A stretch of DNA of 64,000 nucleotides from a virus (lineage: Duplodnaviria > Caudoviricetes): IMG/VR virus record IMGVR_UViG_3300021256_000079, positions 1 to 64,000 of that record; one strand, written 5' to 3'. The first letter of the stretch is position 1. Every line of letters starts with the position of its first letter. A model generated the notes under the pieces. It was not told the origin of the DNA. It was given only the letters and a program-made list of their open reading frames with translations, and did no database searches. Below are positions 6,756 through 49,801 of this stretch, piece after piece. Position numbers and translations under genes: made by a program.

Positions 6756-6773
6756 GAAAGGACTGAAAACGTT

Positions 6774-7277
6774 ATGCCGAATTATTACAATCCGTATAAC
6801 TTTTTCCCGCAGACCTATCCCGGCCTTGCTTCGATGCAGCAACAGCCGGCAATATACAATCCTCCAACTCAGCCGCCTCAGACTCAGATGACCCAGCCAA
6901 AATACTGGGAATGGGTTGAAGGAGAAGTTGGAGCAAGAGCCTATCAGATGCCTCCTGGATGGCCGGCAAATCAGCCAATTCCACTCTGGGATTCAACAGA
7001 TACTGCTATCTTCCTTAAAAGCTGGAACGCAATGGGGATTCCGAATCCTATTGTAAGAATTCCTTATGCTTCACAGGAAAAATGGACTCAACTTGGCGTA
7101 TCTGGCAATACTTCGTCCGCACAGTATGTCACCAAAGAGGACTTTGCATCCCTTAAAGAAGAGATCCAGAGTCTGAAAGAATCTTTCAATAATCAGAACT
7201 ATCGAAAGAATCAAAATGGAAGTAATAACCAGAATGGTCAGAACAATGTAAACAAGGGAGGCAACAATAATGGTTAA
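6774..7277 (+). CDS. Hypothetical protein, P/Q/Y-rich N-terminus
   Basis: Coupled ORF with WVEGEVGA and YVTKEDF motifs. Confidence 0.65.
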   Translation: MPNYYNPYNFFPQTYPGLASMQQQPAIYNPPTQPPQTQMTQPKYWEWVEGEVGARAYQMPPGWPANQPIPLWDSTDTAIFLKSWNAMGIPNPIVRIPYASQEKWTQLGVSGNTSSAQYVTKEDFASLKEEIQSLKESFNNQNYRKNQNGSNNQNGQNNVNKGGNNNG

Positions 7278-7578
7278 TCCTTTGTTCCAGCAGTTCTTTG
7301 GTGGCGGTATGCCCTCTCCGCAGTCACCGCAAATTCCTCAAATGCCTCAGATGCCTAATCAGAACCCCATGCAGATGATGGCAAACGTCATGAGAGCCAT
7401 GATGAATCCCGCTGCATTTGTAAAGCAGTATTTCCCGGATATTCCGGACAACATTCAGAACGATCCAAATCAGGTGTTCAACTATCTGCAACAGACTCGT
7501 CCTCAGGTAACAGGACAGCAGATTCAGCAAGCTCAGCAGACAGCTGGACAGATAATTGGACAGGGAAATGTTAGGTAA
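7270..7578 (+). CDS. Hypothetical Q/P/M-rich protein
   Basis: GGAGG RBS; overlaps the previous stop. Confidence 0.65.
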   Translation: MVNPLFQQFFGGGMPSPQSPQIPQMPQMPNQNPMQMMANVMRAMMNPAAFVKQYFPDIPDNIQNDPNQVFNYLQQTRPQVTGQQIQQAQQTAGQIIGQGNVR

Positions 7579-9147: not shown

Positions 9148-12100
9148 ATGCCAGTATCGATTAAACGTTCTCAGATGAGATACAAGGGTGCAAATGGCGA
9201 ATTTGTTGGAGTCGATGCCGTTGCTGATCAGATCACAACTGAGATGATAGATAATATTAACGAAGCTGGAGAAGCTCAGCTCGCCGCCATTCAAGCAAAA
9301 GCAGAAGAGGCTAGAGCAAGTGTTCCTGACAGCTATACCGCGCTTTCGGACAGGGTAAACGCAGTCGAAGAAGACATGTCTAAGACTGTTGATGGCGCTT
9401 ATGTTGAAAACGGTGTAGCATATTTCACTCGTGGCGACGATGTATTGTTCTCCATCACCGGAATAGGCGGAGGTGGTGGAGGCGGAAGTACCAATAATGC
9501 TGTTCTCACTGTTCAGAACACAACGGGATGGCTTAGCACTGCAGTTGCTATTGGTACGGATATTTTGCTGTCTCTTACTTGGTCTTCTCTTGAAGAAGAA
9601 ATTTCTACTGGAGATGGCGTACTCTACATCATTAACAACGACTCAATTGTTAGGACTACGGATGTACATCAGGGTAGTGTCAGCGTCAATGTCAAAGATA
9701 TTTTGACTGCTGGTGACAACCGTGTAAAGCTTAGAATTGCGGATGTCTATGGCAACTCCAGAACCATTGCATTCAACATTAAGTGCATCGAGCTTCTTAT
9801 AACTTCTGTCTTTGATCCGAGTATTGTTTATACTTCTCAGTTTACGTTCCCATATATCGCTCATGGTGACATCGAGAAGACTGTATATTTGGAAATTGAC
9901 GGAACGGTTGTTGATTCCCAGACGATTACTACATCTGGACACCAGAGAACTTTTGAGATTCAGCCGCTTTCTCACGGATCTCATTTGATTAGATGCTACT
10001 TTGAATCTGTAATTAACGAACAGACTATTCGTAGTAACGTAATTTCTTACAATATTCTCTTTGCCACGGACGAAGGAACTGAGACTATTCTGTCGGCTAA
10101 CATCGCATCGACATCTGTTTCTCAGTATAGTTCGATTGTTCTTGACTACATTGTCTATAAACCTGGTATGCTTACGGCTCCTGTTGATATTTCGCTTAAC
10201 GGAACTGTAATTTCAAGCCAGGTTGTCGATAGAACTCGTCACACTTACAACATTCGTATGGATATTTCTGGTTCCAATACGATTGTTATCAGTAGCGAAG
10301 GTGTAACAAAGACGTTTAATGTCACTGTTACAGAGACTGACATGGCGGAAGCTGAAACAGACTCTCTTAAACTTTATCTCACAAGTTACGGAAGAAGTAA
10401 TAATGAGAGTGAAGAGGGAAGAGCTGTTTGGCAAGACACCAATAATGATATTTCTGCTACTCTTACAGGCTTCAACTTCTCTTCAGATGGCTGGGTTAAA
10501 GACGAAGAAGGTCAGGATGTTCTTAGAGTCGGTGGCGATGCCAGGATTACTATTCCTTATAGACTCTTTGAGAACGACTTCAGAACAAAGGGCAAGACGA
10601 TAGAGATCGAGTTCTCGACAAGGTCGGTTTTGAGTTACGATGCAACGATTCTTAGTTGTATCAGTGACAACATCGGTCTTCTGATCACCCCTCAGACTGC
10701 AACTTTGACCTCTGAACAGTCTTCTGTCACAACCAGATACAAGGAAAATGAGCATATTCGCTTGACATTTGTGTGCGACAAGAGATCTGAAGACAGACTT
10801 CTCATGATTTATATTAACGGCATTCCTTCTGGTGTTGTACAGTATCCTAGTGATGATGACTTCTCTCAGAGGAATCCTGTTGATATTTCAATCGGAAGCT
10901 CGGATTGCACAATTGACCTGTATACTATTCGTATTTACGACAACAATCTTACAAGGAATCAGGTTCTCAACAACTTTATTGCTGATACAAGAGATATTAG
11001 CAAGAGGGCTGAGCTTTACGAGCGGAATAATGTTTATGATATTTATGGTAACATTATCGCTTCTAAGCTTCCGAGAGATCTGCCTTATATGATCGTTGAA
11101 GCAGAGCAGCTTCCTCAGTATAAAGGCGATAAGAAGACGGTTTCCGGTACTTATGTTGATCCTGCAAATCCTGTTAAGTCTTTTACATTTACTGGATGCC
11201 AGATTAATGTTCAGGGTACTTCTTCTGCTCCTTATGCTAGAAAGAATTACGACCTTCAGTTTAAGAATGGCTTTGAGATGACACAGAGCGGTTCTCATGC
11301 GGATAATTACGCGCTTACTGATACCATTGTGCCGTTCAACCGTTTTGTCACGAAGGCGGACGTTGCCTCTTCTGAAGGCGCCAATAACGTCGAACTTGTT
11401 AAACTTTATTGTGAAATTAGTCCCTTTAAGACAAGGGAAATGCTCGCTGACAGCAGGATCAGACAGGGTATTTATGGTTTCCCGATTGTAATGTTCTGGA
11501 AGAATGCTACAACCGGAGCAACTTCTTTCCTTGGTAAATACAATTTTAACCTCCCGAAACGTGCTCCTGGACCTTACGGATATTCCGGAGACATGGAATC
11601 TTGGGAGTTCCAGAACAACACTTCGAATCTGATGCTCTTTAAGACTGATTACTTCGATGAAACGATGTATACAGACCCAGAAACTGGCGACACAAAAGAA
11701 CGTTGGAGATACGACTATGAAGCTCGTTTCCCTGATGACAGTTGGGTCAACTATACAAAGCTTCAGGAACTTCAGTCTTTTATTGTGTCAACTGACAGAA
11801 GTGCTGCGACTGGAGAAGATCTTGCAAGTCCGGTTGTATATTCTAATGTGACTTATACAAAAGATACGGCTGAGTACAGACTTGCTAAATTTAAGAACGA
11901 ATTCGGTAACTATGCTGAAGTCAATTCCTTCATATTCTATTATTTGTTCACAGAGTTCTTCCTTATGGTTGACTCCAGAGCAAAGAACCTCTTTATAGGC
12001 TTCTCTGGATCTGACACTGATCCGAGTCTTAATCTGGCTATTGACAGAAAAGCCGTTGCCGAACCTTATGATATGGATACCGCTATTGGTACAAACAACG

Positions 12101-14496: not shown

Positions 14497-14513
14497 AAAG
14501 TTGGTGATATATC

Positions 14514-15563
14514 TTGAATACGATAGATTCCTTAACTGACGAAGTTGCGCTGAAACAATATTTAGAAGGAACATTAACTGAATTCGTTGACGATGAAATC
14601 GTAGATGTCGATCAATATGCGTTTGATGGTTTATATAGTTTACAAAGTGTTTCGCTTCCAGAAGCGACCTCGATTGGTAAGTATGCGTTCAGTAGATGTA
14701 GTGGACTAGAATCAGTCTTAATTCCTAAAATAACATCCATGAACGAAGGTCTTTTTGATAGTTGTACAAATTTAGTCAGTGTCAGTTTTCCTCTTGTCAC
14801 CTTAATTGGTAAGAACGTATTTTATGAATGCAAGAGTCTGAACGATGTTGATTTCCCTCTTGTTACCTCGATTGGTATGTATGCGTTTTATAAATGTGAG
14901 AGTCTAACCGATGTTGATTTCCCTCTTGTTACCGTGATTAACTCAAATGCATTTAGGAACTGCAGTAATCTAACTGATATTAATTTCCCTCGTGCTACCT
15001 TGATTGGTGAAGGTGCATTTAGGGACTGCACTAGTATATCTTCGATTTCCTTTGATAATGCAACATCACTTAAAGGATATGCATTCTCTGGATGTTCAAG
15101 TTTAGTATCTGTTAATTTGCCACTGGCTACTATTGACGGAGCTTATGTTTTTGATAGCTGCCACAGTTTGACTCATATTTCTTTACCGTCTGCTAACACT
15201 TCTGATAATAGATCTCAATGTTTTAAAGGATGCGAAAATCTTGTAGAAGCATCCTTACCAAATATTATAGAGATAGGAAGTAGTTTTTTTGCAACGTGTA
15301 AAAAACTTGAATCTGTTTATATTCCAAAAGCTGTCAGGATTGATAGCTATTCTTTTAGTGATTGTAAATCTTTGAAATCAATAAATCTTCCATCGGCAAC
15401 ACAGATTGACGCGTCGGCTTTTTACGCGTGTGCTGCTCTCACAGATATTTACGTCCCATTCGCTTCTGATTCTTCTTCGGCAACTGGCGCTCCTTGGGGA
15501 GCAACTAATGCTACAGTTCACTATAACACTGTGTTCGACTCTAACGGCGAACCTGTGACTTAA
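14514..15563 (+). CDS. BspA-like leucine-rich repeat (LRR_5) protein
   Basis: About 13 tandem 22-aa repeats of form IGxxAFxxCxxLxxVxFP. Confidence 0.85.
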   Translation: MNTIDSLTDEVALKQYLEGTLTEFVDDEIVDVDQYAFDGLYSLQSVSLPEATSIGKYAFSRCSGLESVLIPKITSMNEGLFDSCTNLVSVSFPLVTLIGKNVFYECKSLNDVDFPLVTSIGMYAFYKCESLTDVDFPLVTVINSNAFRNCSNLTDINFPRATLIGEGAFRDCTSISSISFDNATSLKGYAFSGCSSLVSVNLPLATIDGAYVFDSCHSLTHISLPSANTSDNRSQCFKGCENLVEASLPNIIEIGSSFFATCKKLESVYIPKAVRIDSYSFSDCKSLKSINLPSATQIDASAFYACAALTDIYVPFASDSSSATGAPWGATNATVHYNTVFDSNGEPVT

Positions 15564-17653: not shown

Positions 17654-18112
17654 ATGGCAGAGTTTATTTACAATGAGGTTCAACTTGTCCAACCGGGAGC
17701 AGCAGCTCTTTTCAATACAGCGATTGGCTGTCCTAGACGCAATGTATTGCATCGCCCAGGAAGCGGAATTCTGACTTTAAGAGGAATTGTCAATAATCCT
17801 TGTGCTAGCTTTGCGAGATACAGAGTGGCTTTTGACGGTAATATCGCTATACCGGAAGGGGGAACCCCTGGTGAAATCCAGCTTGGTATTGCCATTGATG
17901 GTGAAGTTGTACCGACTTCTATTGCGGCTGCAACTCCAACCGCCGTAAATGCATATTGGAACGTCAGTGGATTTGCGATAATCGACACTCCTGCAGGATG
18001 TTGCTATACGGTTAGTATCGAAAATGCTTCAGTCAGCGCTGATCCAGCAACAACACCGGCGAGTGCACTAAATCTTCGCAATTTAAATGTCGAAGTAACT
18101 CGTTTGGCGTAA
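17654..18112 (+). CDS. Conserved beta-rich phage protein (possible BclA C-terminal-like fold)
   Basis: GGAGG RBS before MAEF; HRPGSGILTLRG and FDGNIAIP motifs; fold call is inference. Confidence 0.6.
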   Translation: MAEFIYNEVQLVQPGAAALFNTAIGCPRRNVLHRPGSGILTLRGIVNNPCASFARYRVAFDGNIAIPEGGTPGEIQLGIAIDGEVVPTSIAAATPTAVNAYWNVSGFAIIDTPAGCCYTVSIENASVSADPATTPASALNLRNLNVEVTRLA

Positions 18113-18125
18113 GGAGGAATAAGCG

Positions 18126-18485
18126 ATGACTGAATATGAAGTCTATGAAGTTCATAAGAATCAGGTTTGTAAAGAACTTGAAATGCTCGCTGATAAGTTC
18201 AAGAAGACTGGAGCAATGACAGAGTCCGATCTCGATAAAATTGAGAAACTTTGGCGCACAAAAAAGAACATGCTGGCTGCTAGAGGCATGGAGCATCCTG
18301 AGGAGTACGATGAGTCTCCTAACGAGGGTAACATGTCCGGTAGACGCATGAGATATGTAAGTAGAGACTCTGGCCAGAGTTACGCAGAAGGATATAGTCA
18401 GGGATACAATGAAGGTGCTCGTCAAGCCAATATGAGGCAGAGCGGTCACTATCCTATGTATCCTGAAGGACGGTATCCTTACTAA
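18126..18485 (+). CDS. Hypothetical protein (RYVSRD motif)
   Basis: AAGGAGG RBS; last gene before a strong terminator. Confidence 0.65.
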   Translation: MTEYEVYEVHKNQVCKELEMLADKFKKTGAMTESDLDKIEKLWRTKKNMLAARGMEHPEEYDESPNEGNMSGRRMRYVSRDSGQSYAEGYSQGYNEGARQANMRQSGHYPMYPEGRYPY

Positions 18486-18651
18486 ATCAAAATGGAAGTT
18501 CGGAGTAGTCCTTTTTACTACCATATCTTGCTGAATCACTAAAAATTAATTTTTTTCACGTGAGCAGAACCAAAACCACACACCTCACTGGTAGTACAAT
18601 TGGCGGGAGCGGATAAACACCAGTCGGGAGTGCCGCCTTTCACTTTGATTT

Positions 18652-18695
18652 AAGCTTGTGCTCCTCGCTTGAGGAGCATGGGCTTTTATTTTTTT
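18652..18695 (+). terminator. Strong intrinsic terminator closing the late region
   Basis: 15-bp stem AAGCTTGTGCTCCTC/GAGGAGCATGGGCTT (with GU pairs) plus T tract. Confidence 0.8.
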
Positions 18696-18764
18696 AGTTT
18701 CGAACGAAGTGAGAAGCTGTTTGAATAAAATGAAAACCTTCGCGTAAGAAACATGTGTCTTAAT

Positions 18765-18876
18765 GAGAAGGAAAGATTATTCACCCTTAAGACATCAAGG
18801 ATGGTATAGGCGTTAGAGACCTATTTGAGCATATGCTCACTGGATAATCAAAAGTGCTTGCGGAGGCTGCCTTCTC
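18765..18876 (+). ncRNA. Putative multi-branched small RNA
   Basis: Starts at the last G of motif 18741; GAGAAGG/CCTTCTC closing stem, GATTATTCA/TGGATAATC inner stem, three hairpins, then a T tract. Confidence 0.55.
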
Positions 18877-18963
18877 TTATTTTTTTCAAATCCAAAAAAT
18901 TCCCGGGTGGGATTTTTGGAAAAAAACGCGTCTCAAACATTCTAGATAATGGAGGTGATTTAT

Positions 18964-19278
18964 ATGGCAAAAAAGAAAAAGCCATATATGGTATTCGAGA
19001 CAAAAGAAGAGTTTAAAAAGCAATTTGACGAGATCTACAAATCTGGAAAAGAAGATGGATTTAAAGACGGATGTGTTTGGGTACTTAGCTATATGTATGA
19101 CTTATTTGATGGCATGTTTTCAAAAGAAGCAATGGACGCTGCATATTATGAAAAGCAACAGCGAAAAATTGAAAGTTGGAGGCGAGCTGTCGAAGAAAAA
19201 GAAAAACCATGGCCTGGTATGAAAAACTGGCTTGATTCATTACACGAAGAAGCAGATAACGGATCTAAAGACGAATGA
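18964..19278 (+). CDS. Hypothetical early protein
   Basis: GGAGGTG RBS after motif 18927; followed by hairpin GAGTCC-TGTAACA-GGGACTC and T tract. Confidence 0.7.
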   Translation: MAKKKKPYMVFETKEEFKKQFDEIYKSGKEDGFKDGCVWVLSYMYDLFDGMFSKEAMDAAYYEKQQRKIESWRRAVEEKEKPWPGMKNWLDSLHEEADNGSKDE

Positions 19279-19326
19279 GTCCTGTAACAGGGACTCTTCT
19301 TTTTTAAATGAAAGGAGAAATGAATA

Positions 19327-19650
19327 ATGCATATTGATTTTAATGAAAATGTAGACATTACTGTTTACGCTTGTTTTCACAAGAAAGTATATTACGAATC
19401 TTATGATGAAAAAGTTGAATTAGTTGATATCGAAGATATTTGTGACTGCGTATCTTTAGCACGGTGCTCAATAAATAAAATGATTCATAAACAAGATAAG
19501 GCTACTCATATAAACAATCCATATTTGTTTGATAGGACAATAGAAAATGGTGTCATTACATTTACAGCCAAACGTGCAAAAGAAGTTACCCACTCATATT
19601 GGTATGAGAAAGTTAAATTAGAATTGTGTTCGTCTGAGAAACATTTCTGA
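19327..19650 (+). CDS. Hypothetical protein
   Basis: AAAGGAG RBS. Confidence 0.6.
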   Translation: MHIDFNENVDITVYACFHKKVYYESYDEKVELVDIEDICDCVSLARCSINKMIHKQDKATHINNPYLFDRTIENGVITFTAKRAKEVTHSYWYEKVKLELCSSEKHF

Positions 19651-19857
19651 TAATGGAGGTGAAGCTCATGTTTAAAAAGATTAAAGAATGGTTGAAAAAC
19701 ATTTTTAAAAAAGCGGGCAATTTTGTTGATGATGACGAAAAGCTCGAAAAAGTAACAGATGTTTATGTATACCTTTTTGACAGAGATCGATAATAAATAT
19801 GAGGAGCTTAAAACGCTCCTTTCTTTTTTTTCTCGCGTAAGAAACACGCTTTTAAAT

Positions 19858-19930
19858 GAAGAGGACATGTAATGATAGACCCGCGTTCTATCGATAATTG
19901 CACGTGCGGATGTGCGACATAATCCTCTTT
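19858..19930 (+). ncRNA. Putative small structured RNA or leader
   Basis: Starts at the last G of motif 19834; GAAGAGGA/TCCTCTTT closing stem with GATAGA/TCTATC and GCAC/GTGC hairpins. Confidence 0.5.
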
Positions 19931-19953
19931 AATTTTTTTAGGAGGGACCAACT

Positions 19954-20223
19954 ATGAAACTGGTCATCAACAATTGCTTTGGTGGATTTGACATTCCCGA
20001 TGAGTACCGTTCAGAATTCGACTATTCTTGGAAAATTCAAAGAAACGATCCGAGATTAATTGAGTTAGTCGAAAAACTTATAAGTGAAGGTAAAAACGCT
20101 TTTACTTGCACATGCCTTGTTATTGTGGATGTACCTGATGAGGCAACGGATTACATGATTAGCGATTACGACGGTCAGGAATCTGTTATTTACGTAATTG
20201 ATGGCAAGCTCCACGTTTTATAA
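19954..20223 (+). CDS. Conserved phage hypothetical protein
   Basis: MKLVINNCFGGF, RNDPRLIELVE and YDGQE motifs. Confidence 0.7.
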   Translation: MKLVINNCFGGFDIPDEYRSEFDYSWKIQRNDPRLIELVEKLISEGKNAFTCTCLVIVDVPDEATDYMISDYDGQESVIYVIDGKLHVL

Positions 20224-20235
20224 GGAGGATATTTT

Positions 20236-20529
20236 ATGACAATCTATGTGATTCTCGAAAGCGGCCAAATTTATGGGTATAACAATCGTGATTATCCAGA
20301 CACATATTGTGATACTTTTGTAGATCTTGCAAAAAGTGAAGAAGACGCAAAACGTATCATAGACGAAAAAGTTAAAGACCGCGAGGGATTTCTTATGTCA
20401 ATGGATTGTTATATTAGGACCTCAGTTTGCGATGATGGTCCTTTTGAACAACAATTCGAACACCCCGCTATCTGTATAGAGGGTGCTTATGATGATGTTT
20501 ATTACTACTTTGTGACTCGTGAAATTTAA
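20236..20529 (+). CDS. Hypothetical protein
   Basis: AAGGAGG RBS. Confidence 0.6.
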   Translation: MTIYVILESGQIYGYNNRDYPDTYCDTFVDLAKSEEDAKRIIDEKVKDREGFLMSMDCYIRTSVCDDGPFEQQFEHPAICIEGAYDDVYYYFVTREI

Positions 20530-20727
20530 TCATGAATAGCTATCTGAAAAGAGGTGAACAAGATGCATAAACGTATTCGAGATATTTTACGTTTCATCAT
20601 ACGGCATAGAAAACTATCTAAATTTTTCCATCGATGGAAATGGTTTAATCATCTGTGCTACGAGGAAGCACAGGCAATTATTGGAAACAGATCGTGGAAG
20701 TAGCTTTCTGAAAGGAAGATATTTATC

Positions 20728-21225
20728 GTGAAAAGAGTCATTGTGAATATTATCGTGTGCGCGATCCTCGTTTCTCTTTTTACTTTTCTGATATTTACAG
20801 ATTCAGATGCCGAAAGTGTAACAATGTACGGCATCTGCGAAACTGGCTCTATCAACGTCAGAGTAAAGCCAAATGTGCATTCTGACGTTTGCGGTCACAT
20901 TGAATTTGGATGGGCTGTTGATATTTCAGATTCCAGAAAAGTCGGTAAAACAACCTGGTATAAGATCGATGGTTTTGGCGAATATGGTGTCGGATGGATT
21001 AATGGAAGATATTTATCCGAGACTGAACCGATAAAAACGAAGAATACTTATGGAAAAGTTAAAGCGAACGGACGAGTTGCCGTTTATAGTATAACTGGAA
21101 AAAGAAAGGGGTGGATTAAACCAAACAAAACATTCCAAATTTTAATTTATACAGAAGAGAGGTGTTTAACTGAGAAAGGATGGATCAAAACCAAGTATCT
21201 GGATATTTACGAAGGAGGTGAATAA
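20728..21225 (+). CDS. Exported SH3b-domain protein
   Basis: Signal/TM segment, then INVRVKPN...WYKI...GWINGRYL and a second GWIKTKYL. Confidence 0.7.
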   Translation: MKRVIVNIIVCAILVSLFTFLIFTDSDAESVTMYGICETGSINVRVKPNVHSDVCGHIEFGWAVDISDSRKVGKTTWYKIDGFGEYGVGWINGRYLSETEPIKTKNTYGKVKANGRVAVYSITGKRKGWIKPNKTFQILIYTEERCLTEKGWIKTKYLDIYEGGE

Positions 21226-31001: not shown

Positions 31002-31280
31002 ATGAATCAGATTATTGAATTTATTGGTATCTATTTGATCATGGGAATTGCGGCTGACTTAATTTACATTGTGTTTGCGATGGGTTACTTATTTGTGAAG
31101 TTATATCCTAATTACAATAAGCTTGTAGAATTCAACAGGCATATTGAATCGGATAAAAACGAAGACAAAAGCAAAAGTAACGCTATTATGCACTGGCTCA
31201 ATGTACTGTTCATGTGGCCGTACAGAATTACAATGGCTGTATACGATATTTATTCGACAATAAAGAAGATTACTACGTAA
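31002..31280 (+). CDS. Cassette ORF, membrane protein (paralog of 32020-32295)
   Basis: N-terminal TM, KLYPN, LFMWPYRIT. Confidence 0.75.
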   Translation: MNQIIEFIGIYLIMGIAADLIYIVFAMGYLFVKLYPNYNKLVEFNRHIESDKNEDKSKSNAIMHWLNVLFMWPYRITMAVYDIYSTIKKITT

Positions 31281-32019: not shown

Positions 32020-32295
32020 ATGATGAATCTTATTATCGAAATTGTAGGTATGTATCTTATTGTAGGTATTGTGGCTTATGGAATCTATATGGTAGCATGG
32101 ACCATCTACGCTTTGACTAAGCTGTATCCGAACAGGGCAGAAAAAGTACAAGATTTTAAATCTCATGTATATGCAAAAATAGAACAGCCAAAAAGCAAAA
32201 TTGGTCACTTGCTCAATATACTATTTCTATGGCCGTACAGAATTACTATTGGATCGTATAATGTTTATTCAATAATTAAGGAGATGACTGTGTAA
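32020..32295 (+). CDS. Cassette ORF, membrane protein (paralog of 31002-31280)
   Basis: N-terminal TM, KLYPN, LFLWPYRIT. Confidence 0.75.
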   Translation: MMNLIIEIVGMYLIVGIVAYGIYMVAWTIYALTKLYPNRAEKVQDFKSHVYAKIEQPKSKIGHLLNILFLWPYRITIGSYNVYSIIKEMTV

Positions 32296-34512: not shown

Positions 34513-34591
34513 CGCGTAAGAAACATGGTGTTTAATGGGAGGACTAAGGAAACTTGGTCCTCTTATATTTTTCTCGAAAGGAGTCATACCA

Positions 34592-35407
34592 ATGAGTCTC
34601 AAGGTCAAGGGAAAAACGTTGCTTATTCTGGTGACAGGTGCTGGTATTGTAGTCACAGCTTATCTTGCCGCTAAGAAAGCACCGGAAGCTCAAAAGAGAA
34701 AGGAGGAAGCACTTAAAGCAAAAAGAGAAGCCACTGGAGATGAGAACGCTCAGCTTACAACTACCGAGTCTATAAAGGCACAAATTGGTAGTTATGCGCC
34801 AGCAATTATTAGTGGTGTCGTAGCTTTTAGCAGTTTTATTGGAACCGAAATTATTGACGAGCATGATATTCATAAGATTAAGCAGTCGGTAACGAACGAT
34901 TTCAATAAACTTAAGAATTCACTAGATGACTACAAAACAATGACCGATAAGTTGAACGGCAATGGCTCTTCCAAGATAATTGAAAGAGCTATTGAACAAG
35001 ACAATAAGACGTTTACAACAAGACAGTGGTACCGAATTGTATTTGAGGGTGAAAAACTTGAATTCCAGTCTACGCCAGAAGAGGTGATTAAAGCTTTTTA
35101 TGAGGCGAATCGACAGTTTCAGGGTACAGGAATTCTGACATTTAATGAGTTTATTGATTTTCTCGATCAGCAGCTATTGACAGATGAAGCTCAGCAAAAG
35201 GGTGAAGAACTCTGTTGGGAGGCTTTTGTATGTGACAACATCTTTGGCTACACGTGGCTAGACTTTGATATTCAGCCTTGTGAAGATAGACCCGACATGA
35301 AAGAGATCATCTTTCCTGTGATGCCTCGTTATATTGATGAGGAAGATCGATACCATAAGATTAACGAAGCCTGTGCTAAAAAGATTACGGATGGTGATAT
35401 TGAATGA
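34592..35407 (+). CDS. DUF6353-like membrane-anchored protein (paralog 1)
   Basis: GAGIVVTAYLAAK TM, YAPAII second hydrophobic block, ILTFNEF...WLDF C-terminus. Confidence 0.65.
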   Translation: MSLKVKGKTLLILVTGAGIVVTAYLAAKKAPEAQKRKEEALKAKREATGDENAQLTTTESIKAQIGSYAPAIISGVVAFSSFIGTEIIDEHDIHKIKQSVTNDFNKLKNSLDDYKTMTDKLNGNGSSKIIERAIEQDNKTFTTRQWYRIVFEGEKLEFQSTPEEVIKAFYEANRQFQGTGILTFNEFIDFLDQQLLTDEAQQKGEELCWEAFVCDNIFGYTWLDFDIQPCEDRPDMKEIIFPVMPRYIDEEDRYHKINEACAKKITDGDIE

Positions 35408-36046
35408 CGCCTAAAACGTATGTACTCGAGGTTTCGGACGAAATCAATAGTGTTCCAAGTAGGATTAAGAGTATACAAAAACTGTTCAACGATGAGAATA
35501 CGATCGTTACTCTTAACCTTATAAGAGAGGTGTTCGGATTGAGGCCGCTTAGATCAGAGTATGAAATGTGCTTTGGTCCGAACACAGAAGAACCGCTGGA
35601 TATTAGTGTATCTTACAGCTTTAATACTAGGATGCATGCTGAAAACAATTGTTATACAATCAAGATTTCGAACGTCATCGATTTAAGATATTTTTATGAA
35701 TGTTGTGAGGAGAGCGATTACTATGGAGACGATTAAAATTAGTGATACAGATCTTAGGGAATATGCCAACGAAATTATGTCGAGCGATGAGTATCTCGCT
35801 CAGAGAGAAAAATACCATATGCACAACCCAAAGCACTATGTAAATGAATCGACGCATAGAGCAATCATGATGAGTTCTATTGATATTGCGAAAAAAACTA
35901 TCGGCAGTAACGGTACTATTGAAGAGATCAAAAGAGCATGTGTCTATATGAGAATCTGTATTGACGCAAGACAGTATCGACTGAACTATACGGCGGCAAA
36001 GAAAGAACTCAAAATTGATGAGCTTGTTCAGAAGTATTGTAAATAA
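35404..36046 (+). other. Two hypothetical ORFs (35404-35736, 35723-36046)
   Basis: Overlapping coupled ORFs. Confidence 0.55.
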
Positions 36047-40965: not shown

Positions 40966-42804
40966 ATGCGTAGACCAACTAGAACTCAAATACTTATGTC
41001 TAATCTTTACATATGGGTTAGACGGTACGGATGCGTAGATATTAGTCCTGGAATGGAAAAGTATCTGTGTGTATCAAGAAGGGTTCTTCTAAGTGCTGCT
41101 AAAAGCTTATGCAAGGATCCTGCTGATTTGAATAAAGTAATGATATTACGAATTGATGGCATTACCGTCCTGGTTACGGACGATTTTTCACTCAGTGACT
41201 TTGATTTAAGACTAATCCCAAAAGATCTTGAGGGGTACACAGATGGCAATAATAGTTAAAGGATATTTGAAATGCAAAATATGCGGAACATTCTTTACTC
41301 CAGCAATAACCGAGCTGCCTTGTTACTTTACAGAGAATGAAGTAGAAGACGGGGTAGAAGTCGGCGTTCCGTCGGAAAAGTGTGCAGAATGCAAACATTT
41401 TTTGAGCTGGAGATGCAGCTCACCCAGATGCCCAGCATGCGGATCTAATAACGTTAAAAAAGTATCTGGTATTGCAGTTAGAATTTCTAACTATTTTAGA
41501 AAGTGAGGAATCTATTATGGACCGTTATGCTAGAGTTTCTTTTGGAAGAGACGAAAAAGAAAAGCAACGAGACTTTCTTCTCGCCATGAATGGTGCTGAA
41601 ATCATTCAAGTCTCAGAAGAAGATATTGATAGATGGTATGAAGAAGATGTGAAAATGAATACCGGATGCAATAACTGCATTGTTTTGCATAATGACGAAG
41701 AAGTAAACCGTTTTATTTATGTAATGCGCACCTTCTTCAATGGCGTTCCGTATAAAATCACAAGTGATCCCGATAATGAAGTGTTCAAAGAATGCATTGA
41801 AAAGAGTAAAAAGGAGCTGTCATGAAGAGTTCTGCCAAAGATATTTGTGTCAAAGAGCGAATTAGCGATGAACTTATGAAGTTTACATTCGATTTTGAAC
41901 AAAAAGTCATAGATACTCTAGGTTTTACGACTGTTGGACACATCTTAGGCTACTTAAAAATTAACGAAATACCCAATAAGTATTGGAGTTATATTGTCTC
42001 AAAGCTAGATTTCATTAAATGGGACGAAGAAAGAAAAGAAACAGTAATTAGGTGCAGATATCGCACAAAAAACACCTCCTCTAATGAGAAAGGAGGTGAA
42101 TCTTAATGAGTCAGATTTTTCTTGAAATTGGCGACATTGAAAGCACTATGGAATTCATAAAAGATGCAAAAGAAGCTGGATTCCTGAAAGATATTTCATC
42201 AGATAAGGTTGAAAGTCTTTTAAAGGATAAACAGTTTCCGATACGTATCCAAATTGAATTAGATGATGTGTTTAAATTGGCGTCTAATCCTATTGTTAGG
42301 AAAATGTTTGGCAAAAGAATTGAGGACACAACAGTAAAGACCATTCTCAAGGTAATTAATGAGTAAGGAGGCTTAAATAAGTCTCCTTATATTTTTCGCT
42401 TACAACGAAGAAAGGAGTAAATGTTGAAGCAATGGGAAAGATACCTGCAACAACAATACGAGCAGGACCGAAGAAAACTATTGGACTATAGAGAGATTGA
42501 TATTGAGTTTAAGCAATTAATAATGGAGGCGACAATACTCGATGGACCAGTTGAACCTGATCCTGTCATTGATATTGTGCTCAATGATAGGGTTCATGAT
42601 GGGGAATGTGTACGGACAGAACAAAGTAAAGTATCAGATCGAGAAATTGTTGGACAGGATCATGAAGAGCCTGGGGGAGATCCAGAAGGGGACGGACGAG
42701 AAGAAGTAATCGATGATTACGACGATTCGTTCGATTCTTATTATGATGAAATTGTTGAATACAAGAACAGTAAAAAGACTGGTAAAAAGAAAAAAGGAAA
42801 ATGA
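40966..42804 (+). other. Six small hypothetical ORFs (40966-41259, 41243-41506 Zn ribbon, 41517-41825, 41822-42106, 42106-42366, 42421-42804)
   Basis: Coupled ORFs with RBSs. Confidence 0.6.
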
Positions 42805-43634
42805 GGGATATTTTCATGAATGCTCTTTCAAAAATGACGAGACCACTTGTTAGAGTGACCAGAAATGGTATTCGATTCTTTAACAAGAATGCAAACTTGA
42901 TATTGACAGTTGTTAGTGCAACTGGTGTTCTTGCCACTGTTGTATGTGCTGTTAAAGGGACTATTAAAGCTGTAAAGCTATATGAAGAGAAGAAACCGGT
43001 TGGCGGGAAAGAAATTGTTAAGACAGTTTGGAAATGTTATATTCCAACCGCTGGAATGGTGATTCTCACAACAACGGCCATCATTTGTAATGGCAGAATG
43101 AATGCTAAGAAGATTGCCATGTTGACCAGTGCTTATGGTTCATCCATGGAAGCTCTCAAGAGAGTTGAAGATAAAATGGGTGAAGCTCTTGGACCCAAGA
43201 AGGCTCAGCAGGTTATCGACGAAGTTCATAGCGAAAAAGCCGAAGCCTCAAGCAAAGTAATCACAGAGGATGATATTAAGAAAACCGGTCACGGCGATGA
43301 AATCTTCTTCATATACGATGTAGGTCAATGGATCTACGCGAATACAAACTGGATCGAACTCGCGGAACTTAAGACCTATAAAGAACTTCAGGATAGTAAC
43401 GACTGGAACGATGATGGAGAAGCATATTTGCTCATGAACAATGCTCTTCAGAATCTCGGTGCGAATCCTTGTTATTTCGGCGGATCTCATGGATGGTTCC
43501 ACGACGATCTTGAAAAGCTTGGACTGGATGGACCGAAGTTTAGAATTAGTTCAAAGAGGATGTTTGTTCCGTGGCTTGGCGAAGAAAGAGCCGTTGGCAC
43601 AATCTGGTTTGAACCAGAGGCTTCAGTCATTTGA
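42801..43634 (+). CDS. DUF6353-like membrane-anchored protein (paralog 2)
   Basis: ILTVVSATGVLATVVCAVKGT, WKCYIPT, KTGHGD, GW motifs. Confidence 0.7.
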   Translation: MRDIFMNALSKMTRPLVRVTRNGIRFFNKNANLILTVVSATGVLATVVCAVKGTIKAVKLYEEKKPVGGKEIVKTVWKCYIPTAGMVILTTTAIICNGRMNAKKIAMLTSAYGSSMEALKRVEDKMGEALGPKKAQQVIDEVHSEKAEASSKVITEDDIKKTGHGDEIFFIYDVGQWIYANTNWIELAELKTYKELQDSNDWNDDGEAYLLMNNALQNLGANPCYFGGSHGWFHDDLEKLGLDGPKFRISSKRMFVPWLGEERAVGTIWFEPEASVI

Positions 43635-44001: not shown

Positions 44002-44320
44002 TATTTTTAACGAACACTATTTAGTAACAAAGTATGAACTTGATCTTACGTCAATTATTAGTAAATGCGAGTGTATTAGTTTCAATGCTGTTAACAGCAA
44101 CGTTGATGAAAGATTGTGCGAAATCATGGCCTATGTGTTCACACGGGTAAAACAGCCGTTAAAACAACATGGGCTTGTATACAAACTTAAAAAAGCTGTT
44201 GATATTTATTGCGAAAAGTTTGAAAAAGAAAGCTATGGGGTTTCTCCTGGTTTTAAAGAACGTTTTTACGAACAATACGCAGAGTATATTGTTAGAAAGG
44301 ATGAGGAAGATGGAGCCTAA
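43991..44320 (+). CDS. Hypothetical protein
   Basis: Coupled ORF. Confidence 0.55.
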   Translation: MPTDIFNEHYLVTKYELDLTSIISKCECISFNAVNSNVDERLCEIMAYVFTRVKQPLKQHGLVYKLKKAVDIYCEKFEKESYGVSPGFKERFYEQYAEYIVRKDEEDGA

Positions 44321-44681
44321 AGGTAGCAGCTATAGTTTTGTTGCCTCGAAGACAATTTATGTAGGCGAAGGTGAAGAAGTTGCTATGAACAATGTTTTTA
44401 ACGAAGATTGTAATAAAGAATTTATTGACTTCCTCAAAGAAAAACTTACTGAGTTCGCTCAGGAAAACTGTGTAAAGAAAATCGTTCGCAATGGTCCTGC
44501 CACAATCGTGTTCTGGGATGATGGCACGAAGACCATTGTAAAGAGAGCAGAGGGTACCAAAGATGATATTTACATGGCTTTCTGCTCTGCTTTCACAAAG
44601 AAAATGCTTGGTAATAACAGTCGTATCAAAAGAATTATTTTCAAAAATTTGATTGAAGAAGGAGAAAAGAAAAATGCTTAA
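44310..44681 (+). CDS. NGPATIVFWxDGTKT-domain protein (tandem paralog A)
   Basis: RNGPATIVFWDDGTKTIVKR. Confidence 0.7.
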   Translation: MEPKGSSYSFVASKTIYVGEGEEVAMNNVFNEDCNKEFIDFLKEKLTEFAQENCVKKIVRNGPATIVFWDDGTKTIVKRAEGTKDDIYMAFCSAFTKKMLGNNSRIKRIIFKNLIEEGEKKNA

Positions 44682-45177
44682 CATTGGAGATTGCGCAGGT
44701 AATTCTTGTGCCGTTAATTCTATTGATCGCGCATGTACTTGTATTGATAGTTCTGAATACAGCTATCGTCTTACTCCTTATACTCCTTATGCTGCTTCTT
44801 ATGGAGATATTGGTATTAGAGCAATTGAAGAATCGGTCGAAGCTATGCCTGGATCTCCAGCAACCGGAACTCTTGTCATGAAAGTTGACCCGGGTAAACT
44901 TTTGACTAAAGAGGACATTCTAAATATTGTCGGAAAAACAAGCTTTGCTTTCAATGATTACGGAGTTGATAGGATTATTAGAAACGGTCCGGCTACTATT
45001 GTGATCTGGAAGGATGGCACTAAGACGATTGTAAAGAGGTCCAAAGGCGAGAAGGACGATATTTATGTTGCCTTCTGCGCTGCTCTTGCCAAAAAGCTTT
45101 ACGGCAACAACAGTAAGATCAAGCGAATGCTTAATGAGAAGACAGTTTATGATACCAAAAAGAAGGGAGTTAAGTAA
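44674..45177 (+). CDS. NGPATIVxWxDGTKT-domain protein (tandem paralog B)
   Basis: RNGPATIVIWKDGTKTIVKR. Confidence 0.7.
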   Translation: MLNIGDCAGNSCAVNSIDRACTCIDSSEYSYRLTPYTPYAASYGDIGIRAIEESVEAMPGSPATGTLVMKVDPGKLLTKEDILNIVGKTSFAFNDYGVDRIIRNGPATIVIWKDGTKTIVKRSKGEKDDIYVAFCAALAKKLYGNNSKIKRMLNEKTVYDTKKKGVK

Positions 45178-45282: not shown

Positions 45283-46563
45283 ATGGAAGAAATGGTAAGA
45301 GTCCGGAGTGCTAAAGAGTACTTCAATGAATACGGACTTAATGGCATCGGTAAGGGTGCTGATAAATGGATGATCAGAAGGCAGCTTATCGATGCATTCC
45401 AAAAGGAAATGTTTGGACTTATCACAATTCGTATCCACAAAGATATTCCAGAAGGAGTTCCTGCAATTGGGAACCCAAGAGCAATCGAGATCATTAGGAA
45501 TGTAACCAGTGATACCCAGAAAAAGTGGGTAAAGCTATGTAACATGTTTGCTCAGTATAAGGAAACAAGCGGTCTTCTGAGTATCGACGATCTTAAAGGC
45601 GAGTATATTAAAGACGACGATACAGATGATACCGATGATGAAACACGCGCAGAAAACATGGAGTAAGATGAGGGAACCACAAAATAAAACTTTTATATTT
45701 GGAAGGAGTAATTTATTATGGCAAAGACTGTGAACAACAACGAAACGACAAAGGTTGAGGACCTGAAAGAAACAACGATGGAAGAAGAAATCAACGAAAC
45801 CGAAAAGGTTATCGAAGACAACAGCAAGAAGAAAAAGATCATTAAGGTGGTCATCGGTGCAGTTGCCTTTATCGCAACGAACGTAGCGAGCTTCTTCATT
45901 GGTCGTGGAACGGCAAACAATGACGACGATGATGACACGGAAAGTCAGGAAGAAAAGACCGAAGAATAATACAGATATTTGTGGTTCCTGAAATTGGAAA
46001 AGGCTAGGCAAAAATGACTTAGCCTTTTTCTTTTCCCTTTTTTGTCTAATAGGAGGTCGCAATGCTAGAGAATCTGACAAAAAAGCTAGCAGAGAAGATG
46101 GGGAAATCGGTCAAAGCGACGATTGAACCAAAAGTCGATAGCAAAATAGACTTATATTCTAAAATTTTGAGATTCGGAGTGTTGGTCTTTTTGTTTATCG
46201 AAGGGACTAAAAAGGCTACCAATGATATTTCGACTCCGGCAAATCCGAATCAGATTGTAATTAATAACTATCTCTATGAAAGAAAGGAGTGAAATGATGA
46301 ATAATGAAGAAATGAAAAGCCCTTTGGATGCAGCAAAATTCGTTACTGGGACTATTATATCCTTGGGTGCTGCAGCAGCGGTCGTTGGTATGATGCAAAA
46401 CCCTATTAAAAACGCAAAAGGACTTACTAAGCTTATGATGAAACTTGGCGTTTTCGTTATTGGATGTAAAGTCGGAGACGTTGTGGAAAAGTATTTTAAC
46501 GACACTGTTGACGAAATGGTTAAGGCATTTAACGATCTTAAGAAGGAGATGGGGAAAGCATGA
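45283..46563 (+). other. Four small ORFs, mostly membrane-anchored (45283-45666, 45718-45969, 46062-46292, 46294-46563)
   Basis: RBSs; single TM segments in three of them. Confidence 0.6.
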
Positions 46564-47237: not shown

Positions 47238-48224
47238 ATGGGAATGCTCAGTATTATTAAAACCGTACCTAAAGTTGCGAAAAGGGGACTCGGAAGGGTC
47301 CTCTTTTCCATTTCCAAAAACAAACCCCAAATTTTGCTCGGGGGAGGAATTATATTAACGGTAGGCGGCTTCGTGTGGGCTGTTGTTAATGCCACTAAAC
47401 TCAATGAAACCATGAGTGAAGGTGAAAAGGCCGTTAATGATATTCAGGAGAAGATCAAGATCGAGGAAGGTAAAGAAGAAGTAGAGACTACTCTTGTCGA
47501 TCTTAATAAGGAACTTCGCAAAGCTAAAAAAGATAACATTTTGAAGGTTGCATTCCTTATGGGTGCACCGACTCTAGTGTTTGTTGGTGGCGTTGCTATG
47601 ACAGTTGGAGGCCACATTATATTACTCAGACGCTTTGGTCAGGTATCAGCATCACTTGCAGCTCTTCAGCAAGCGTTTGCAAGATACAGACAAATGAACA
47701 TTGCTGAACACGGAGAAGAGTGTGATAGAAGATATCGTTATGGTATCTCTAATACTATCGAAACGGAATCCGTGATTACGGATGAAAACGGGAATGAAGT
47801 GAAAGGTAAAGCTCTAATCCCGGTTACGGACAAGGATCCTGCCAGTATGTTCACTTTTATATTCTCTGAGGAGTTCTCAAGGAAGTGCCCTAAGGATCCT
47901 GTTGCCACGATTTCATTCCTTAGGTCTCAAGAAAAGTATTGGAACATGTGGATGCAGGCAACAGGCCGTCCTGTAACACTTAGTATGGTTCTTCAGGATC
48001 TTGGGATTGAACTTGATCCAGATGATCCTATGAACGATTATATTTTGGTAGCTGGTTGGCGTCCTAATGGGGAAGGAGATGGGTATATTGACTTCGGTAT
48101 CATGAGATCTGTCAATAAGCCGACTCTCGACATGCTTGAAAACAGTGTCATGCTAAACTTCAACTGTGACGGTAACATTTACCACAGTGTACGGACCACA
48201 AAAGACGGAAAGAAGGTATGTTAA
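47238..48224 (+). CDS. DUF6353-like membrane-anchored protein (paralog 3)
   Basis: NKPQILLGGGI TM, YRYG, VAGW...YIDFG...LNFNCDGNI. Confidence 0.7.
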   Translation: MGMLSIIKTVPKVAKRGLGRVLFSISKNKPQILLGGGIILTVGGFVWAVVNATKLNETMSEGEKAVNDIQEKIKIEEGKEEVETTLVDLNKELRKAKKDNILKVAFLMGAPTLVFVGGVAMTVGGHIILLRRFGQVSASLAALQQAFARYRQMNIAEHGEECDRRYRYGISNTIETESVITDENGNEVKGKALIPVTDKDPASMFTFIFSEEFSRKCPKDPVATISFLRSQEKYWNMWMQATGRPVTLSMVLQDLGIELDPDDPMNDYILVAGWRPNGEGDGYIDFGIMRSVNKPTLDMLENSVMLNFNCDGNIYHSVRTTKDGKKVC

Positions 48225-48345
48225 ATGAACGAGTATGACTCTAAGCCTACGGACGATATGATTAATTTTCTTGATATTGATCACGGATCCGATAGAATTA
48301 TTATTCATTTTAACGTTGACGCGATTAAGAAGGAGGAAACTACAA

Positions 48346-49098
48346 ATGACAACGATTAAAATTGGCGGAGTACTTCTTACTGGTTTTGCTGCTTACCTGA
48401 TTCTTAGTAAGGCAATTGGCACTATTGATAATTCCACAAAGAGGGCTTGTGAAGCTTCTAAGTGGAAGAATTATTACAAGTGCTGGAGCGAAGGTAATGC
48501 AGAAGGCGAACCCATTCCTCCTGGATATTCTAGAAAGTCTGATACATCAACGACCGGAGTCAATGAAAATAGCATCGATCAGGATCCTAATGAGGCCGCC
48601 GCTAAGGCCGCTGTAGACCTCATTAAGGAAGGTTTGTCAAAGCTGAAGGTTACCATTACAAAGCATGCAGAGAAGCAGGAAAAGGTCTCTGAAGGGCAAG
48701 AAAAGGCATCTGCAGTTGATATTGTTGAATCACTGAAAGATTTTGACACAAAAGCCTATCAGCTGCCTGACGATGCTCCTCCTGTTGATATTGATCACGG
48801 GTTTGACAGAAAGGCCGAGATCTGTAGAATCAGTAATCTTATCATTAGTATGACGAAAAGAAATGCTGATGAGGATGAACTTGAAAGGGCTATTATTCAC
48901 TCGATGGTAATCATCGACGCTGAAAAGTATCATCTTGATTACATGCAATCCTATATTGATAATCGTATTGATCAGCTCATCGAGAAGTATCAGCCTGAGG
49001 TTAATGATATTGCTAACGACGTGATCGATTACATGGAAAAGAAATACGAGGTTGTAAATAAAGTAGAAGAGGAGAACAAAGATGAAACCGTGGATTAA
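48346..49098 (+). CDS. Membrane-anchored protein containing a copy of an RNA-polymerase segment
   Basis: AGGAGG RBS; N-terminal TM; 89 aa (48727-48993) align ungapped to the RNAP segment encoded at 60467-60733. Confidence 0.75.
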   Translation: MTTIKIGGVLLTGFAAYLILSKAIGTIDNSTKRACEASKWKNYYKCWSEGNAEGEPIPPGYSRKSDTSTTGVNENSIDQDPNEAAAKAAVDLIKEGLSKLKVTITKHAEKQEKVSEGQEKASAVDIVESLKDFDTKAYQLPDDAPPVDIDHGFDRKAEICRISNLIISMTKRNADEDELERAIIHSMVIIDAEKYHLDYMQSYIDNRIDQLIEKYQPEVNDIANDVIDYMEKKYEVVNKVEEENKDETVD

Positions 49099-49801
49099 GA
49101 TTCTTATTGGTGTGGTTTCAGGATTTGCCGGTGGCTTTGCTGCCGGCTTCCTTTTTTGCAAAAAGATGAATGATATTCAGTTTGTTGAGATCGACGAAGA
49201 AGAAATGGCTCAAATCGAAGAAGATCTCAAGAAGACAGACAAAACAGACAAACAAGAAGCAATCAAGAAGGCTGTTGAAGAGACTGATCCTCAGAACGAA
49301 GACGAACTGAGGAATGCTCTTCAGGGTAAGGTCAGTTATATTCGTGCGGACCAGGAAGCAAAACAAAAGTTCGCATCGACATGGAATACGATCAAAGATT
49401 ATTCCAGTGAGGAAAATGCTGACTCTATGCCAATTGATATTGAGGAAGGCTTTGATGAAGAATTCCTTGAAACGATTGAGGAGGAAACGGTCGAGCCAGG
49501 ACAGGTCGATCCTCCTCACATAATTTCGCTTAGTGAGTTCTACAACGAACGGCCAGAGTATGATAAAATCACTATTGAATGGTATGAAGAGGACGATACT
49601 TATGTAGACGAAAACGAAGAAATCATCGATGATATTTCTTCTTACATAGGTATGAACCGCGACAAACTGTTCAAAGAAAATGGACCGGACGATGATCCTG
49701 ATATTCGGTTTGTAAGAAACGAACAATACGGCAGTGACTACGAAATTGTCCGTCATCATATGAGCTATAAGGAGGCAACCGGTCTTGAGGAAGGAGAGTA
49801 A
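49082..49801 (+). CDS. TM-anchored acidic conserved phage protein
   Basis: GFAGGFAAGF TM; PHIIS..EF, DDPDIRFVRNE..DYEI. Confidence 0.7.
   Translation: MKPWIKILIGVVSGFAGGFAAGFLFCKKMNDIQFVEIDEEEMAQIEEDLKKTDKTDKQEAIKKAVEETDPQNEDELRNALQGKVSYIRADQEAKQKFASTWNTIKDYSSEENADSMPIDIEEGFDEEFLETIEEETVEPGQVDPPHIISLSEFYNERPEYDKITIEWYEEDDTYVDENEEIIDDISSYIGMNRDKLFKENGPDDDPDIRFVRNEQYGSDYEIVRHHMSYKEATGLEEGE

Follow-up and report, generated by a model that had tools for sequence, protein, structure and literature searches.

The DNA analyzed here (the window) comprises the initial 64 kb of the 94,754-bp IMG/VR virus record IMGVR_UViG_3300021256_000079, which is rated complete by CheckV. At 48346-49098 it contains a small gene for a protein of 250 amino acids (aa), in which a hydrophobic, predicted membrane-anchoring segment is followed by a copy of one segment of the phage's own RNA polymerase (RNAP), encoded further downstream. 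When the two proteins were compared, aa 126-227 of the small protein and aa 567-668 of the polymerase gave a single ungapped BLASTP match (E-value 5e-31) with 51/102 residues identical and 73/102 positive, and the same pair was recovered by a six-frame search over the whole 94.7-kb genome. Both genes and their parts are listed below with the basis of each assignment. The copied segment is called the module or, as some orthologs lack it, the insert. Confidence of the AlphaFold2 (AF2) models is given as pLDDT (predicted local distance difference test).

48346-49098, + strand: gene of the 250-aa protein (open reading frame, or ORF, with ribosome-binding site, or RBS; ortholog clusters; conserved synteny)
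48361-48417, + strand: hydrophobic N-terminal segment aa 6-24, predicted membrane anchor (Kyte-Doolittle)
48448-48531, + strand: juxtamembrane motif CEASKWKNYYKCWS...PPGYS, aa 35-62 (conserved, present in insert-less orthologs too)
48532-48720, + strand: acidic linker aa 63-125 with the SEGQEKAS motif at its end (pLDDT below 50)
48721-49026, + strand: polymerase-derived module aa 126-227 (BLASTP); its helical core, aa 126-216, is 48721-48993
49069-49095, + strand: acidic C-terminal tail EENKDETVD (conserved with and without the insert)
58763-61561, + strand: single-subunit two-barrel QDE-1/YonO-like RNA polymerase, 932 aa (phrog_4291, AF2 model, DFDGD)
58835-58894, + strand: N-terminal polymerase motif aa 25-44, YGTPRHSGRYPWGSG..PYQ (invariant in 47 polymerases, pLDDT below 50)
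60461-60766, + strand: source-type RNAP segment aa 567-668 (alignment, AF2 model, RDR2 and QDE-1 descriptions)

The RBS of the small gene is strong (AAGGAGG at 48330-48336), with the ATG 9 nt further on. The original prediction, made from the sequence of the window, had placed a transmembrane (TM) segment at the N-terminus, and a hydrophobic stretch is indeed present at aa 6-24 (19-residue Kyte-Doolittle peak of 1.75) and kept in all orthologs, its core GGV.LTG.AA being conserved across every member of the family. A cleaved signal peptide was set aside because the alignment shows N or E at the -3 position in many orthologs. In the AF2 model of the small protein the module alone was predicted with confidence (pLDDT 75-87), with helices at aa 155-171, 176-195, 199-205 and 208-215. 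The last residue, D250, is invariant across the aligned family. No match for the N-terminal 125 residues was found in Pfam, NCBIfam, PADLOC or ESM Atlas, and the PADLOC profiles gave no match at an E-value of 0.01 or better for the 250-aa protein or for its DUF6353 neighbour (see below).

The polymerase and the copied segment

The 932-aa polymerase has helix-turn-helix (HTH) domains at both its N- and C-terminus and is matched end to end by phrog_4291 ('RNA-dependent RNA polymerase', E=0); Pfam RdRP (PF05183) scored 15.1 bits, below its gathering cut-off of 23.8. The DFDGD metal-binding loop (aa 546-550) is invariant among 47 polymerase homologs. When the AF2 model (pLDDT 78) was compared with known structures, QDE-1 was matched by Foldseek (E-value 1e-7), and VIA-align paired model residues 241-771 with QDE-1 683-1196 (Z 16, 372 residues, root-mean-square deviation 4.1). 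The next structural matches were to RDR2 and two phage polymerases, P74 gp62 and P32 gp64. A profile of the 47 polymerases, run against PDB sequences, reached HTH proteins only and not QDE-1. The family comprises at least 8000 clusters at 90% identity, and this HTH-flanked DxDGD protein was reported as the signature of a supergroup that includes several actinophage clusters, Lactococcus 1706-like phages and Faecalibacterium phage FP_oengus (10.1101/842583).

The original prediction had counted 49 identities in 89 codons between 48727-48993 and 60467-60733, and our recount gave exactly that figure. It had also described the copy as lacking the DFDGD loop, which lies at 60398-60412 in the polymerase gene; the copy begins 17 residues after it. 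As further claimed, the two DNA segments differ mainly at third positions (nucleotide identity of 0.65, 0.71 and 0.39 at the three codon positions). The same codon is used at 21 of the 51 identical residues, dN (nonsynonymous substitutions per site) is 0.41 and dS (the synonymous equivalent) is saturated, which therefore points to an old duplication without recent gene conversion. Because the match spans RNAP aa 567-668 only, without DFDGD or barrels, the 250-aa protein is considered a copy of a subdomain and not a polymerase. With neither DFDGD nor either barrel in its sequence, it is non-catalytic.

In the polymerase model, a loop containing a short helix links the final strand of the barrel (551-556) to helices at 596-612, 617-636, 640-646 and 649-657, and the boundaries of the copy are the boundaries of this helical unit. 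Helix 596-612 bears the invariant MG..SNLITDMTIKG stretch and helix 617-636 terminates in I631-D632-A-E-K635. In the RDR2 structure, the elements after the Asp triad are a secondary-channel loop, a bridge helix made of two parts and bearing a conserved glycine, and then helix 906-922 with a loop, which together form the trigger loop; RDR2 K923 is the equivalent of QDE-1 K1119 and of the trigger-loop His of cellular polymerases. The trigger loop of QDE-1 comprises 1102-1136, and its V1115, D1116 and K1119 contact the nucleoside triphosphate. Since the order of the elements, their spacing and the short I-D-x-x-K motif agree with these descriptions of RDR2 and QDE-1, we infer that the copied piece corresponds to the secondary-channel loop, bridge helix and trigger loop. 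The original prediction had spoken of a non-catalytic mimic of a bridge/trigger-helix-like region. Its non-catalytic part is borne out by the sequence and its placement agrees in order, spacing and motif, while mimicry is a question of function and is weighed in the last section.

Orthologs, selection and a second polymerase-like motif

When 5.8 billion proteins were searched, full-length insert-bearing orthologs were found in at least 19 clusters (52-96% identity), along with 10 clusters of insert-less relatives that share the anchor, CEASKWKNYYKCWS...PPGYS, the SEGQEKAS linker motif and the C-terminal ...DETVD tail. Insert-bearing and insert-less orthologs occupy one and the same locus. An IMG/VR scan for the small protein gave one other locus only. 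Pairwise values of dN/dS were calculated by NG86 among eight orthologs and were 0.0-0.27 for the module, 0.3-0.65 for the linker (except for the two closest pairs, 0.05 and 0.18) and 0.0-0.37 for the N-terminal 60 residues; the corresponding segment within the polymerase gave 0.04-0.07.

Of the checks that had been suggested with the original prediction, pairwise alignment with dN/dS gave homology at the E-value given above with dN/dS not near 1, and a search of related phages for insert-less orthologs gave the 10 insert-less clusters at the same locus. The selection on the protein that had been read from third-position divergence is purifying within the module. The insert is neither unique nor decaying, its frame being intact at one locus in all of the at least 19 clusters.

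The window protein and ortholog P0009 have identical modules, yet their N-terminal dN is 0.23. Two N-terminal types, MTTIKIGGVLL and MIKLKVGGVIL, occur in free combination with the various module types (window gene, L005, L018-L023). As N-terminal types do not track module types, the small gene is a recombining mosaic.

When a tree of 71 module sequences was drawn, the 20 inserts formed one clade (support 100/99) on a stem of 0.56 substitutions per site. This clade was nested in a clade of related metagenomic, probably gut-phage, polymerases (support 97/95), from which the actinophage, Lactococcus and FP_oengus polymerases were excluded. A lineage-specific loop, YQLP.DAP.VD..HGF, is common to the inserts and the related metagenomic polymerases. 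Because the polymerase of a phage with an insert-less ortholog is 85% identical to the window polymerase, the insert would have been gained, or later lost, within a closely related group.

The 89 aligned positions could be divided by conservation: 36 are conserved and identical in inserts and polymerases, 5 are conserved in both but different, 15 are conserved only in inserts and 15 only in polymerases. The last class includes G601, N605, T608, D609, I612, K613, G614 and V624, as well as E634, H637, W640, G648 and Q657. The bridge-helix glycine G601 is invariant in polymerases and is C, S or R in inserts. Constraint is lifted at the bridge-helix-like positions, while the trigger-loop-like HSMV.IDA.K stretch hardly varies among the copies. 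Net charge of the module is about -9 in inserts versus 0 in polymerases. Taken together, the freed and newly fixed positions and the charge shift fit a change of function after which constraint set in. The insert appears to have changed fast early, when it lost the glycine and its bridge-helix neighbours and gained acidity, and to have been under purifying selection afterwards.

A second polymerase-like element was found in the same protein family. In the polymerase, YGTPRHSGRYPWGSG..PYQ is the longest invariant run among the 47 homologs despite its predicted disorder, and this piece (aa 25-44) looks like a short docking motif for a putative partner. In the whole genome, translated in six frames, the pattern G[RKE][YK][PS][WY][GS] has a single occurrence, at the polymerase N-terminus. 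The same pattern is present in the variable C-terminal part of the small-protein orthologs P0023, P0028 and P0029, all without the insert, and together with the insert in P0012 and P0013. Some insert-bearing orthologs have the close variant GRYSYG, and insert-less P0020 has GRYSW. The usual form in orthologs is G.P[VI][AS]GRYPWG versus GTPRHSGRYPWG in the polymerase, and the window's own 250-aa protein retains a mere remnant (...YEVVNKV...). Because two unrelated polymerase-like elements occur in one small protein family, mimicry is favoured over plain reuse of a fold. This motif, the insert-less family members and the mini-proteins of other phages described below go beyond the original prediction.

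Gene neighbourhood and mini-proteins of other phages

The features below surround the small gene, with the exception of the last two, which lie elsewhere in the window and in another phage.

47238-48224, + strand: DUF6353 membrane protein directly upstream of the small gene (Pfam E-value 5.8e-27, conserved synteny)
48225-48359, + strand: 44-aa ORF that runs into the start of the small gene (relatives have a called ORF of 36-40 aa here as well)
49082-49801, + strand: 239-aa protein, phrog_4695, downstream (overlap of 17 nt between its start and the end of the small gene)
45646-45671, + strand: promoter-like motif nearest upstream of the small gene (next copy at 57716)
35723-36046, + strand: 107-aa stand-alone ORF, possible third copy (weak resemblance of its last 45 residues to the trigger-loop-like half of the module)
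13302-13628 of OR668229.1: 108-aa coding sequence (CDS), WPJ30607.1, in the isolated Streptomyces phage Psst1 (database label 'RNA-dependent RNA polymerase')

The order of the locus is 221-aa protein, DUF6353, tiny ORF, small protein, 239-aa protein (with a hydrophobic N-terminus), 178-aa protein, replication module and polymerase, and genes around the small gene abut or overlap. Only DUF6353 and uncharacterised PHROG families were matched by the neighbours of the small gene (Pfam, NCBIfam, PADLOC, ESM Atlas). DUF6353 is a virus-specific family with two predicted TM helices, and three highly divergent paralogues are present in the window (34535-35407, 42801-43634 and 47238-48224). Two of these three are followed, at a distance of one or two genes, by a module copy, and the same holds for a DUF6353 gene in the unrelated contig L030. 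In all, module copies were downstream of DUF6353 genes in 3/4 of the contexts seen.

The phage-specific, promoter-like motif CGCR-N5-AACAY-N7-RRTGR has 20 copies in the window (18741-57741), where chance would give 0, and every copy is on the + strand. The motif often stands directly ahead of an RBS and heads the polymerase operon. Since there is no copy between 45646 and 57716, the small gene would be co-transcribed with DUF6353 and the replication genes if the motif is a promoter. Copies at 34513 and 36051 flank the DUF6353b-orf110-orf107 cassette.

Two genes upstream of the 107-aa ORF stands another DUF6353 paralogue. The ORF was matched to the module in the six-frame genome search (E-value 4.6e-5), to RNAP aa 617-656 by BLASTP (E-value 1e-4) and by hhalign with a probability of 46% (E-value 2e-4). 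It has orthologs in 7 clusters. ORF 40966-41259 was not supported by BLASTP as a further polymerase fragment (E-value 0.56, to a different region).

The 102-aa module was searched exhaustively with phmmer against 1.84 billion representatives (E-value cut-off 1e-3). Among the resulting 753 clusters, mostly polymerases or polymerase fragments, about 12 are complete small ORFs with non-polymerase termini and a shared end boundary ...KY[QLS]. Free mini-proteins (P0159, P0205, P0209, P0215/P0307, P0217 and P0245) and forms with an N-terminal hydrophobic helix (P0174/P0306, P0177 and P0281; 19-residue Kyte-Doolittle peaks of 2.0-2.5) were observed. These helices are unrelated to one another and to the 250-aa family, and their flanking charges favour a cytoplasmic C-terminus. 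The architecture of module plus anchor recurs in other phages. On a 58-kb phage contig of the same overall layout, the P0217 gene follows a DUF6353 gene at a distance of 16 nt, and P0174, used as a query, matched the 107-aa ORF of the window (E-value 1.4e-6). The 108-aa protein of Psst1 consists of a bridge-helix-like part, the module end and an HTH, without the trigger-loop tip. It matched aa 589-650 of its own polymerase (E-value 7e-17), the full gene of which is at 17962-20745.

Second, weaker module copies were seen in contigs L029 (8269-8529, 101 aa) and L030 (18807-18977, 67 aa), with E-values of 1e-6 to 2e-6, so several mini-proteins per phage genome may be common. In the related phage L009 (G001:C1:23847-24032, minus strand), a stand-alone ORF of about 95 aa resembles a different part of the polymerase, the winged-helix-like N-terminal subdomain at aa 136-195 (35% identity over 60 aa, E-value 8e-8); no clear counterpart was found in the window genome.

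At least seven head-module proteins share an N-terminal tag of about 35 aa and have unrelated C-termini (locus L026, genome 64841-74831; tagged ORFs at 841-1428, 3212-3805, 5401-6099, 6139-6696, 6724-7536 and 9926-10828 of the locus). All six that were scanned match Pfam DUF7211 (E-values 3e-8 to 1e-4), and the tagged proteins may be capsid cargo. The polymerase N-terminus, though similar by eye, gave no match to the DUF7211 profile at an E-value of 0.1 or better, so packaging of the polymerase in the virion is hypothetical. No DUF7211 motif was found in the 250-aa protein, and a literature search gave no paper that mentions DUF7211. Other internal paralogy in the window includes the adjacent ORFs 44169-44681 and 44653-45177 (58% over 76 aa), the pair 31002-31280 and 32020-32295 (48%), and a 1782-aa protein whose C-terminus is repeated in the next gene, 14514-15563 (39% over 224 aa; region 9148-15563).

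Interpretation and comparison with known systems

The locus thus encodes a conserved, non-catalytic copy of a polymerase subdomain with a hydrophobic anchor, and the inserts of this family form one clade. As to its role, we favour, at a probability of about 0.4, that the 250-aa protein is a membrane-tethered mimic of the polymerase surface which binds a putative polymerase partner. The module and the GRYPWG motif would display polymerase-like surfaces at the membrane, where a putative partner that normally docks on the polymerase would be bound by the mimic and be sequestered, recruited or competed for. Transcription would be coupled in this way to the membrane-associated, replication-phase functions that are co-transcribed with the small gene. 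The protein probably would act together with the neighbouring DUF6353 membrane protein.

Several points weigh against this interpretation. Acidification and the lost polymerase-invariant residues may leave a surface unlike that of the polymerase, and the GRYPWG similarity is short and was spotted after the fact. The assignment to bridge helix and trigger loop is based on order, spacing and one short motif. Topology is a prediction only, as the charges flanking the anchor give no clear signal beyond a slight preference for a cytoplasmic C-terminus. A broader tree with the long-branch mini-proteins did not resolve between direct origin from a polymerase gene and a free mini-protein intermediate. 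When the small-protein model was compared with about 48,000 PDB representatives, generic three-helix bundles only were matched (Z 6.1 or lower); the isolated module is predicted to be such a bundle and could have been recruited merely as a stable fold. A complex prediction with polymerase aa 130-895 and small-protein aa 118-235, run without controls, gave no answer (score 0.00) and is evidence neither way.

A wider form of the mimicry reading is possible, and we put it forward tentatively. The supergroup phages (actinophage, Lactococcus 1706, Faecalibacterium Oengus) may encode a class of bridge-helix/trigger-loop mini-proteins, free or tethered and often paired with DUF6353, which would be surface mimics by which a polymerase-binding factor is sequestered or recruited, or an incoming virion polymerase trapped.

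Co-option of the fold is the alternative that survives best, and we consider it unlikely. The three-helix bundle would have been borrowed as a stable soluble domain, for oligomerisation or as a spacer, in a membrane function unrelated to the polymerase (for example with DUF6353, in replication-phase membrane biology, in lysis timing or similar). The match of the isolated module to generic helical bundles only (Z 5-6) is consistent with this, as are the 15 polymerase-invariant positions left unconstrained, the charge change from 0 to -9 and a host family that works without the insert in related phages. However, the same module with the same boundaries has been recruited repeatedly into free and TM-anchored mini-proteins, the trigger-loop-like HSMV.IDA.K stretch has hardly varied in any copy, and the unrelated GRYPWG motif occurs in the same family.

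Control of entry or superinfection is improbable. Here an early membrane mimic would block the ejection/entry machinery, or the incoming, refolding virion polymerase of a second phage. The predicted anchor would suit such a role, and the small gene is a mosaic of recombining modules, which is typical of conflict genes. An invariant, disordered motif at the polymerase N-terminus, together with the DUF7211 tag at the N-terminus of ten head-module proteins, suggests cargo packaging, but the polymerase N-terminus itself fails the DUF7211 profile. In addition, the gene is located within the transcription unit of the replication module, far from the integrase region, and has no PADLOC match.

Still less probable is the decoy that the original prediction had raised, which would absorb a host sensor or inhibitor, or its variant of a direct polymerase inhibitor that shuts off or relocates transcription. 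The trigger-loop-like residues are kept, which is consistent with such a role, and there are precedents. Poxvirus K3L, a mimic of the S1 domain of eIF2alpha, is a viral pseudosubstrate mimic. Archaeal TFS4 is reported to be a TFS paralogue turned polymerase inhibitor (PMC5715097). A decoy role, however, leaves the membrane anchoring unexplained, and a host sensor for such polymerases is not known. For the inhibitor, a copy in trans can hardly displace the covalently attached module, and in-trans replacement of the polymerase's own module was ranked low for the same reason.

A non-functional relic of partial duplication, to which nothing but the partial nature of the copy points, has almost no chance of being right given module dN/dS of 0.0-0.27, a conserved locus, a frame kept intact across at least 19 clusters, the most divergent at 52% identity, and 15 newly fixed positions.

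Whichever role applies, the module lives alone under selection, has been fused independently to anchors in several phage lineages and is found beside a virus-specific membrane family. It offers an entry point to the regulation of YonO/QDE-1-like phage polymerases, the signature of a large cross-phylum supergroup, and to the role of DUF6353 proteins. To our knowledge, the polymerases of this supergroup have never been biochemically characterised. If the proposed mimicry is true, the small protein would be a new kind of self-mimic regulator, and ready probes for the partner-binding surface of these polymerases would be supplied. If the reading as a mini-protein class is true, a new principle of viral transcription regulation or exclusion would follow.

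In the literature and family databases, nothing was found that describes stand-alone or membrane-anchored bridge-helix/trigger-loop proteins. The nearest known ideas (TFS4, pseudosubstrate mimics, anti-sigma factors, SieA and p16.7) would be functional analogies only. Within polymerases, the putative counterpart of the module is the bridge-helix/trigger-loop subdomain of QDE-1, RDR2, crAss-like phage gp66 and P23-45 gp64 (and of YonO by family), with the same position after the Asp-triad barrel and the same succession of loop, helix, short loop and a helix whose final Lys matches QDE-1 K1119 and RDR2 K923. Unlike that subdomain, the copy stands outside any polymerase, without barrels or Asp triad, has an unconstrained glycine, is strongly acidic and is fused to an anchor.

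Proteins of the RseA/RsiW type are membrane-anchored anti-sigma factors. The 250-aa protein is like them in being a predicted single-pass membrane protein whose putative cytoplasmic domain could hold a transcription component, but it has no kinship of sequence or fold with them, and they bind sigma factors and are not polymerase copies. As with K3L and TFS4, a duplicated piece or paralogue of a machine component would have lost its original activity and been kept for binding. The targets of K3L and TFS4 are known, whereas the window protein copies part of the core of the virus's own polymerase and is predicted to be tethered to the membrane.

The phi29 proteins p16.7 and p1 are phage membrane proteins that organise replication, and p16.7 binds DNA via a basic domain. 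T4 Imm, like P22 SieA, is a model of superinfection exclusion for the entry-control alternative. P22 SieA is reported to be a phage membrane protein acting at entry (PMC10883804). Like SieA, p16.7 and p1, the 250-aa protein is small, presumably belongs to the early or middle phase, has a predicted N-terminal anchor and a putative C-terminal binding domain, and is encoded beside replication genes. It has no homology with any of them, and its module is acidic where the p16.7 domain is basic.

The closest likeness is to the mini-proteins themselves. Their N-termini are unrelated to that of the 250-aa protein and none has the CEASKWKNYYKCWS...ETVD framework. In contrast, the Psst1 CDS and the metagenomic P0159, P0174, P0177, P0217 and P0281 share with it the same module and the C-terminal boundary ...KYQ, their phages also encode a full polymerase, and three of these mini-proteins have N-terminal TM helices.

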